DNA of 64,000 nucleotides from Escherichia coli. Lineage in GTDB: Bacteria; Pseudomonadota; Gammaproteobacteria; Enterobacterales; Enterobacteriaceae. Made by a program: the position numbers and the translations under genes. Below the pieces are notes generated by a model. It had not been told where the DNA came from and did not search any database. It saw only the letters and a list, made by a program, of their open reading frames with translations. Within the stretch, counting starts at the first letter, position 1. Every line of letters starts with the position of its first letter. Where the stretch lies: the NCBI RefSeq assembly GCF_003334335.1, contig NZ_QOWQ01000006.1, one strand, 5' to 3'. Positions 16,219-33,225 of the stretch are shown here, one piece after another.

Positions 16219-16322
16219 ACGTTCCTCCTTTATATGAACTCACCGGAGCAGGCTCCGGTGAGGTGTTGTGAACTTAAGTCTGGACGAAATGCCCGAAAAC
16301 GAAAGTTTGAGGCGTAAAAAGC

Positions 16323-21597: not shown

Positions 21598-22023
21598 ATG
21601 GCAATGCATCTTAACGAAAACCTCGACGATAACGGCGAAATGCATGATATCAACGTGACGCCGTTTATCGACGTGATGTTGGTTCTGCTGATTATCTTTA
21701 TGGTGGCGGCACCGTTAGCGACGGTAGATGTGAAGGTGAACTTGCCTGCTTCTACCAGCACGCCGCAGCCGCGCCCGGAAAAACCGGTTTATCTGTCGGT
21801 GAAGGCAGACAACTCGATGTTTATCGGTAACGATCCGGTCACCGATGAAACAATGATTACGGCGTTGAATGCGTTAACCGAAGGCAAGAAAGACACCACC
21901 ATCTTCTTCCGAGCGGACAAAACCGTCGATTACGAGACGTTGATGAAGGTAATGGATACGCTGCATCAGGCGGGTTACCTGAAGATAGGTCTGGTCGGCG
22001 AAGAAACCGCCAAAGCGAAGTAA
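21598..22023 (+). CDS. exbD: TonB-system protein ExbD
   Basis: 141-aa ORF MAMHLNENLDDNGEMHDINVTPFIDVMLVLLIIF... Confidence 0.95.
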   Translation: MAMHLNENLDDNGEMHDINVTPFIDVMLVLLIIFMVAAPLATVDVKVNLPASTSTPQPRPEKPVYLSVKADNSMFIGNDPVTDETMITALNALTEGKKDTTIFFRADKTVDYETLMKVMDTLHQAGYLKIGLVGEETAKAK

Positions 22024-22029
22024 AGTAGA

Positions 22030-22250
22030 ATTGCCTGATGCGCTACGCTCATCAGGCCTACAAAATCTATTGCAACATGTTGAATCTTCGTGCGTTTGTA
22101 GGCCGGATAAGGCGTTCACGACGCATCCGGCATTAGGTGCTCAATGCCTGATGCGCTACGCTTATCAGGCCTACAAAATCTATTGCAACATGTTGAATCT
22201 TCATGCGTTTGTAGGCGGATAAGGCGTTTTCGCCACATCAGGTAAGAGTG
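22030..22250. repeat. REP/BIME cluster with roughly 107-bp direct duplication
   Basis: gcctgatgcgctacgct(c/t)atcaggcctacaaaatctattgcaacatgttgaatcttc(g/a)tgcgtttgtaggc... occurs twice (about 22034-22115 and 22141-22222) with palindromic REP units. Confidence 0.85.
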
Positions 22251-22261
22251 AATTCACAATG

Positions 22262-22297
22262 ATGCCCGGTTGCTTTTCACAACCGGGCATTTTTTTA
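22262..22297. terminator. bidirectional terminator between exbD/REP and yghA
   Basis: atgcccggttg...caaccgggcat hairpin followed by T7 run. Confidence 0.7.
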
Positions 22298-23179
22298 ACC
22301 TAAATGCTCGCCGCCGCACACGCCGTGCACTTCTGCGGTGACGTAGCTCGACTCCTGACTTGCCAGATAAACATATACAGGGGCCAGTTCCGCCGGTTGC
22401 CCCGCACGTTTCATCGGCGTTTGCTGACCAAACTGCGGGATCTTATCCTGCGTTTGTCCGCCGGAAATTTGCAGTGCTGTCCAGATCGGGCCTGGCGCGA
22501 CAATATTCACCCGAATACCTTTCTCCGCGACCTGTTTTGCCAAGCCACGGCTGTAGTTCAGAATCGCCGCCTTCGTAGCCGCATAGTCCAGTAAATGCGG
22601 ACTTGGCTGGTATGCCTGGATTGACGAAGTGGTGATGATACTTGCACCTTTCGGTAGCAGGGGGATCGCTTCCTGGGTTAGCCAGAACAGCGCGAAAACG
22701 TTAATGGCAAAGGTCTTTTGAAACTGTTCGCTGGTGAGGTCTGCAATATCCGGAATGGCAACCTGTTTCCCGGCGACCAGCGCCATAATATCCAGCCCGC
22801 CTAACGCCTTGTGCGCTTCGTGAACCAGCGAACGGGCAAATTTCTCATCGCTTAAATCGCCTGGCAGCAGAACGGCTTTGCGTCCGCATTCTTCAATGAT
22901 CTTTTTCACATCCTGAGCGTCTTCTTCTTCCACGGGAAGATAACTGATCGCCACGTCAGCCCCTTCACGCGCGTAAGCGATGGCGGCAGCGCGACCTATT
23001 CCGGAATCGCCCCCTGTCACCAGTGCTTTACGATCTTTCAGGCGACCGCTACCAACATAGGTTTTCTCGCCGCAATCCGGTACCGGTGTCATCTTCGCCT
23101 GGATGCCTGGCGTCGGTTGTTTCTGTTTGGGATATTCACCAGTGTAATACTGCGTGGTCGGGTCTTTTAAATGAGACAT
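22295..23179 (-). CDS. yghA: short-chain dehydrogenase/reductase YghA
   Basis: 294-aa ORF with [10 protein letters not shown] Rossmann motif and SDR catalytic region. Confidence 0.92.
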
Positions 23180-33129: not shown

Positions 33130-33225
33130 TAGCTTTCGTAGGCCTGATAAGACGCGGCAGCGTCGCATCAGGCATTGTGCACGATTGCCGGATGCGGCGT
33201 GAACGCCTTATCCGGCCTGGATGGC
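33130..33225. repeat. REP elements between hybG and yghU
   Basis: gtaggcctgataagacgcg...cgcatcaggc and gccggatgcggcgtgaacgccttatccggcc palindromic units. Confidence 0.75.

Follow-up and report, generated by a model that had tools for sequence, protein, structure and literature searches.

The window, a stretch of 64,000 nucleotides from Escherichia coli, contains the convergent genes exbD and yghA, which are separated by a spacer of 271 bp that holds an array of REP sequences. The array is extragenic, lying between the stop codons of the two genes. The region 21990–22310 was identical to the reverse strand of E. coli K-12 MG1655 (NC_000913.3), and the gene borders were taken from the list of open reading frames and from the RefSeq annotation of this identical MG1655 sequence. 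A 63-aa TTG-initiated open reading frame on the plus strand (22031–22222) was rejected as a gene, as it is made wholly of REP sequence. In MG1655 the locus tags skip from b3003 (yghA) to b3005 (exbD), and the gap suggests that a withdrawn gene call, b3004, probably once spanned the exbD–yghA spacer. The features of the locus are the following.

21598–22023, plus strand: exbD coding sequence, stop codon TAA at 22021–22023
22033–22061, plus strand: REP a, a short z-type REP (Z1) ending in CTAC, predicted hairpin −15.3 kcal/mol
22062–22097, no strand assigned: L-type 36-nt tail-to-tail linker of unit 1, from alignment with five BIME-1 paralogs
22098–22132, plus strand: REP b, an intact y-type REP with 5′ GTAG, predicted hairpin −17.0 kcal/mol
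22133–22145, no strand assigned: 13-nt head-to-head spacer TTAGGTGCTCAAT, which joins units 1 and 2, from the Rfam naRNA4 alignment over 22101–22171
22146–22174, plus strand: REP c, the Z1 of the second unit, with an IS621 target inside it (22164–22174) that is a natural IS621 insertion site in other strains
22175–22210, no strand assigned: L-type linker of unit 2, with an IHF-like core on the minus strand at 22186–22198
22211–22244, plus strand: REP d, a degenerate y-type REP that differs from REP b by six substitutions and a 1-nt deletion, predicted hairpin −8.9 against −17.0 kcal/mol
22261–22296, plus strand: intrinsic terminator of exbBD with a 12-bp stem, a 7-nt loop and a run of seven T, from the terminator scan (−20.5/−22.0 kcal/mol)
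22295–23179, minus strand: yghA coding sequence, convergent with exbD, whose stop codon (22295–22297) overlaps the T-run

Each unit of the array opens with the 29-nt palindrome GCCTGATGCGCTACGCTYATCAGGCCTAC, which the 36-nt linker separates from GTAGGCCGGATAAGGCGTTCACGACGCATCCGGCA, a palindrome of 35 nt in inverted orientation. The array thereby holds four REP palindromes, each with GTAG or CTAC, and apart from the degenerate REP d their hairpins were predicted at −13 to −17 kcal/mol. REP a starts 9 nt 3′ of the exbD stop codon, and REP b is one base away from the family consensus (CACGACGC against CACGCCGC). The linker of unit 1 carries an IHF-like core, ATTCAACATGTTG, on the minus strand at 22073–22085, and also the palindrome CAACATGTTG. 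On each strand, predicted folding of the whole spacer was far stronger than that of shuffled sequences (z = −6.9 and −7.4), as is expected for alternating inverted REPs. In the predicted minimum-energy fold, adjacent REPs pair with one another instead of forming local hairpins, and the structure of the RNA in vivo is therefore uncertain.

The first-pass annotation had described two near-identical copies of a block of about 107 bp downstream of exbD. A repeat search placed the duplication at this site, as a 72-nt direct repeat (22032–22103 and 22145–22216) with 97% identity (70/72); the start-to-start distance, however, was 113 nt, which corrects the proposed length. The repeat continues for another 27 nt (22104–22130 and 22216–22242) with 81% identity and an offset of one base. 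The two differences named in that annotation were both present, C/T at 22050/22163 (gctCatc/gctTatc) and G/A at 22090/22203 (cttcGtg/cttcAtg). The description of the copies as near-identical applies to the first two-thirds of the unit, in which the z REP and the linker together show 2 differences in 65 nt, but not to the y REP, which shows 7 differences in 35 alignment columns, including the 1-nt deletion (Fisher p = 0.008). The last REPs of the two units are thus only about 80% alike, and in a gapped alignment of the full units 100 of 117 columns were identical. The probability of finding at least 70 matches in 72 over all pairs of positions in 1.3 kb is about 1e-33, which excludes chance as the source of the 72-nt repeat. 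Tandem Repeats Finder reported no repeat in the region of the REP array; the 113-nt repeat was recovered by direct-repeat search combined with pairwise alignment.

Several results confirm that these units belong to the REP/BIME family, as had been proposed from the first reading. The REPs are imperfect palindromes of 20–40 nt with GTAG or CTAC at the foot of the stem, and they are highly repeated in the genome: the 100-nt Z1-L-Y unit matched at least 14 places (median at least 38) in each of 5,426 complete E. coli genomes. Even in genomes that lack the element at exbD, the best paralog still covered 100% of the unit with 83–89% identity. In addition, the unit aligned column for column with BIME-1 elements, and the array is an already catalogued and partly studied element, not a new one. 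It is named REP222 and is listed for exbB, exbD and yghA with five REPs, a–e, in EcoCyc (Murashko et al. 2023, PMC10100675), whereas we counted four REP palindromes and the terminator hairpin.

According to the definitions of BIME-1, BIME-2 and atypical BIMEs given by Ton-Hoang et al. (PMC3333891), who also describe copy number as variable between strains, a BIME-1 consists of z1 and y REPs with a long L linker, often carries an IHF site and is present in single copy, while multi-copy chimeras are termed “atypical”. The array contains y and z1 REPs in inverse, tail-to-tail orientation around a long, conserved L linker. We compared it with the BIME-1 elements of gyrB, gldA, nagD, rsmS and katE. 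The elements downstream of gldA, gyrB, nagD and rsmS were taken from the best matches in genomes without the exbD element, and the katE element is that of the katE-chbG locus. In all of them the three modules of the array recur, in its order and in its orientation to the upstream gene; the REPs are nearly identical, and each element is located where a transcription unit ends. Within the 36-nt linker, the core GCAAyrTrTTGAAT (read as ATTCAAnnnnTTGC on the opposite strand) is conserved and gap-free against the five paralogs. The z REP of the array is identical or nearly identical to those of gyrB, gldA, rsmS and katE; REP a departs from the z REP of the gyrB, gldA and rsmS elements only by the C at 22050. 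Unlike these single-copy elements, the array consists of two units joined head-to-head by a 13-nt spacer, with a degenerate distal y REP, and the tandem state is found both in the window and in about 64–68% of E. coli genomes. Formally, the REP222 pair is therefore an “atypical BIME” under the scheme of PMC3333891, in that z1, L and y units are repeated in tandem and the joining spacer aligns, with modest similarity, to the “l” linker region of naRNA4.

The array also shares features with REP325, a BIME-2 at yjdM-yjdN from which naRNA4 derives and whose Y-l-Z2 unit is the basis of the naRNA4 model (PMC4550694). Both consist of tandem alternating inverted REPs, and the y REP and the head-to-head spacer of REP222 fit the naRNA4 model. 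The Rfam naRNA4 family (RF02564) matched 22101–22171 with 61.0 bits on the plus strand, marginal against the gathering score of 59.5, and with 44.9 bits on the minus strand. However, a BIME-2 has z2 and y REPs with a short S linker in tandem arrays, whereas the z REP here is 7 nt shorter than Z2, the tail-to-tail linker is of the long, 36-nt L type, and there are two units as opposed to up to a dozen. Assignment of the z REP to the Z2 type was ruled out by the 7 nt missing at its apex relative to the naRNA4/REP325 Z2 in the Rfam alignment and by its match to real BIME-1 elements. The sole other REP cluster in the window (33138–33220) is a full-length Z2-l-Y pair, which matched naRNA4 with 92.6 bits on the minus strand and 60.1 bits on the plus strand. 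Overall, we consider it highly probable that the array is REP222, a BIME of two tandem 113-bp BIME-1 (RIB/RIP)-type units between the convergent exbBD and yghA genes, and that this repeat is largely selfish or neutral, with possible roles in the 3′ UTR and in IHF binding.

Between the array and yghA lies the terminator hairpin, which the first-pass annotation had taken as a bidirectional terminator of exbD and yghA. The terminator scan was positive on the plus (exbD) strand only. On the minus (yghA) strand the same hairpin begins 5 nt past the yghA stop codon, and the scan of 22261–22296 found no site there, the hairpin being followed by AUCAUUGUG / ATCATTGTG and no U-tract. In PMC10100675 the REPs of REP222 are taken to form the 3′ terminus of yghA mRNA, which suggests that yghA transcription reads through the hairpin. 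Bidirectional termination is thus unproven. An alignment of alleles showed that the hairpin is kept in all of them, including those that are free of REPs. In the latter the spacer is 38 bp long, and the hairpin begins 5 nt after the exbD stop codon and 5 nt after the yghA stop codon. The convergent genes of such REP-free strains (L004:424-463, L005:424-463 and L010) are parted by essentially one stem-loop.

The first-pass annotation had further suggested that the array is a hotspot of copy-number change, and the comparison between strains that it had proposed was carried out on 5,426 complete E. coli genomes by using allele-specific queries with strict E-value limits, so that the thresholds are approximate. 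Junction queries without an E-value cut were uninformative, since alignment pieces were joined across the insertion. Unit number varied as expected for such a hotspot, with alleles of zero, one and two units as well as alleles interrupted by IS621.

Uninterrupted two-unit allele: 3,465/5,426 genomes (about 64%)
Junction of unit 1 and unit 2 present: 3,672/5,426 genomes
One-unit allele, 158-bp spacer: 93/5,426 genomes (1.7%)
Empty allele, 38-bp spacer: 1,575/5,426 genomes (29%)
IS621 right-end junction at the locus: 181/5,426 genomes (3.3%)
Unclassified: 86/5,426 genomes (derived)

A further 26 genomes carried the inter-unit junction while lacking both the intact array and the junction with IS621; alleles of three or more units may be present among these and the 86 unclassified genomes. 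The two-unit allele is found in K-12-, BL21- and O157-type strains, whereas ST131- and S88-type strains have no units, and the carriers of the empty allele include ST131, S88 and Seattle 1946. REP222 is dispensable, being missing from about 29% of E. coli genomes, and any role that it has is consequently modulatory at most. Among the one-unit alleles we distinguished at least two haplotypes, which read C..A and T..A at the two diagnostic sites and occur in strains of different background. One-unit alleles may arise by unequal crossover between the 72-nt repeats, and recurrent crossover at differing points within the repeat would yield the two haplotypes.

Outside K-12-like E. coli, a scan for the terminator hairpin in species-representative genomes gave two informative loci. 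Escherichia strain E69 (CP089930.1, L008:2950-3110) has one unit with an intact y REP, and its flanks are about 94–95% identical to K-12; Escherichia sp. MOD1-EC7003 has an empty site. These two states indicate that both the presence and the absence of the array are old, and two loci do not polarise the ancestral state. Strain E69 is labelled E. coli, and divergence is noticeably greater in its linker and 3′ spacer than in the flanking genes. A match to the hairpin in a metagenome-assembled genome labelled Akkermansia (L009:3310-3338) was discarded as a chance match: the hairpin there is GC-rich but unrelated, and it shows no similarity to the window.

IS621 is a bridge-RNA-guided element of the IS110 family. 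Its natural target is ATCAGGCCTAC, with a CT core (Durrant et al., PMC11208160), and this 11-mer occurs exactly at 22051–22061 in REP a and at 22164–22174 in REP c. In strain E7476 (NZ_CP035817.1), IS621 is inserted in the second z REP, right after ...ATCAGGCCT, and the other side reads ...CT|ACAAAATC. The insertion position, ATCAGGCCT^AC, coincides exactly with the published target (L006:1300-1340 and L003:560-620, corresponding to 22164–22174 of the window), and the 181 genomes with an IS621 junction share the right-hand junction of the E7476 type. The locus is thus a clean natural example of bridge-RNA targeting by IS621. One further exact copy of the target 11-mer lies on the minus strand at 33138–33148, in the other REP cluster of the window. 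In the E7476 record, the product of exbB (EXA08_RS05055, L006:8-742) is named “tol-pal system-associated acyl-CoA thioesterase”, an apparent misnaming of ExbB.

A simple account of the tandem pair is that one 113-bp BIME-1 was recently duplicated, through replication slippage or unequal crossover, with nothing else involved. The exact head-to-tail order, the 113-nt period and the 70/72 identity over Z1 and L agree with it, as does the single unit found at the same site in the non-coli Escherichia strain E69. In particular, the L linkers of the two units are identical at 35 of 36 positions, while those of paralogous loci differ far more from one another and from this locus, which indicates that both units derive from this locus. 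However, the divergence between the units is uneven (2/65 nt over Z1 and L against 7/35 columns in the y REP) and is followed by an unalignable spacer. Such a pattern is not that of a simple recent duplication of a whole unit; it calls for renewal of the proximal y REP, by gene conversion or by insertion mediated by TnpA(REP), or for later homogenisation of Z1-L, and duplication alone is therefore possible but somewhat doubtful. Judged from the pattern of differences, decay and renewal, or else homogenisation of z1-L, appear more likely than a single recent duplication of the whole unit. The distal y REP would already have decayed, and gene conversion from other y REPs, or else the REP-associated transposase, for which models have been put forward (PMC3333891), would have renewed the proximal one; alternatively, z1-L may have been homogenised after the duplication. 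REP222 would be, in the main, a selfish or neutral repeat that owes its spread and its present form to this transposase and to homologous recombination.

At the level of RNA, the closest parallel is provided by the 3′ UTRs of malE-malF, osmC and yghA, in which transcribed REP hairpins are associated with degradosome-dependent decay intermediates (PMC10100675). The case of yghA is this very locus, read on the minus strand: in Northern blots, fluoride, inactivation of RNase E and loss of the degradosome scaffold stabilised both the yghA mRNA and a decay intermediate of about 300 nt (PMC10100675). For yghA, these data lend published support to the suggestion of the first-pass annotation that such arrays can stabilise upstream mRNA. 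By this analogy, transcribed REP hairpins in the 3′ UTR would slow the 3′-to-5′ exonucleolytic decay of both convergent mRNAs. In contrast to the REP-stabiliser 3′ UTRs, the REPs of exbBD lie upstream of a canonical intrinsic terminator, so that they are internal to the 3′ UTR and not at its 3′ end; their hairpins would retard 3′-to-5′ decay once the terminator has been removed. REP222 would, as a member of this class, be expected to stabilise exbBD mRNA. A search of the literature for experiments on the exbBD side of REP222 found none. The position of REP a may also affect translation. REPs less than 16 nt from a stop codon stall terminating ribosomes and lower translation, according to Liang et al. 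2015 as reported in PMC12306157, and REP a, 9 nt after the stop codon and hence within this distance, may dampen translation of ExbD. An effect of a hairpin near the stop codon may not differ between alleles, because the REP-free alleles also have a hairpin there, that of the terminator, which at 5 nt from the exbD stop codon is even closer than REP a.

A different view is that REP222 acts chiefly as DNA and not as RNA, with two IHF sites and gyrase-binding REPs that absorb the transcription-driven supercoiling between the convergent genes. The L linkers of BIME-1 elements often carry an IHF site, REPs bind gyrase and Pol I (PMC3333891; PMC6379681), the linker core is conserved with that of other BIME-1 elements, and positive supercoils build up between convergent units. 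In the preferred reading, too, the two linkers may bind IHF, at the putative sites 22073–22085 and 22186–22198. A scan of both linkers with the strict IHF consensus WATCAANNNNTTR gave no match, however, as ATTCAACATGTTG has one mismatch (ATTCAA) to it in both linkers, a mismatch that the katE BIME-1 shares. Enrichment of gyrase has been documented for BIME-2 and not for BIME-1 (PMC6379681), our search of the main texts of IHF ChIP papers gave no binding data for this locus, and the element is dispensable in many lineages. We therefore regard a chiefly DNA-level element as unlikely. A far smaller chance is to be given to the proposal that the y-spacer-z pair (22101–22171) acts as a small RNA resembling naRNA4, which would bind HU and help to condense the nucleoid, as has been proposed for REP325. 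The score on the plus strand lies just above the gathering score, any RNA with two such hairpins, even an antisense one, works with HU in vitro (Qian et al. 2015, PMC4550694), and yghA mRNA is said to include the region (PMC10100675). Yet the score is marginal and the z hairpin is 7 nt short of the Z2 of the model, and the Rfam model is in effect a generic REP pair, the other pair of the window scoring 92.6 bits. The element is moreover missing from 29% of E. coli genomes, and a discrete transcript of such a size is not reported here. We consider this proposal very improbable. Only slightly less improbable is that the tandem state reflects more than drift, in that the BIME-1 dimer places two IHF-type linkers and a cruciform-prone y-l-z pair between exbBD and yghA, and that its lineage-specific presence sets the expression of ExbD and YghA or the local supercoiling. 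If true, this would mean that BIME-1 elements, which are described as single-copy, can amplify in tandem. The reading of REP222 as a mainly selfish or neutral BIME with modulatory roles at most is the one that we prefer.

The roles of the REP class as a barrier to mRNA decay, as a site for IHF and gyrase and as a target of insertion sequences have been known for decades. REP222 is a named member of one of the best-known families of bacterial repeats and matters little beyond bookkeeping. The value added here is modest and consists of the allele counts over 5,426 complete genomes; the natural alleles with zero, one and two units could serve to test the effects of REPs on the expression of exbBD and yghA. 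Elsewhere in the window, two unrelated matches exceeded the Rfam gathering thresholds, namely C0719 RNA at 58464–58685 on the minus strand (298 bits) and the ES173 sRNA at 16257–16320 on the minus strand (99 bits).
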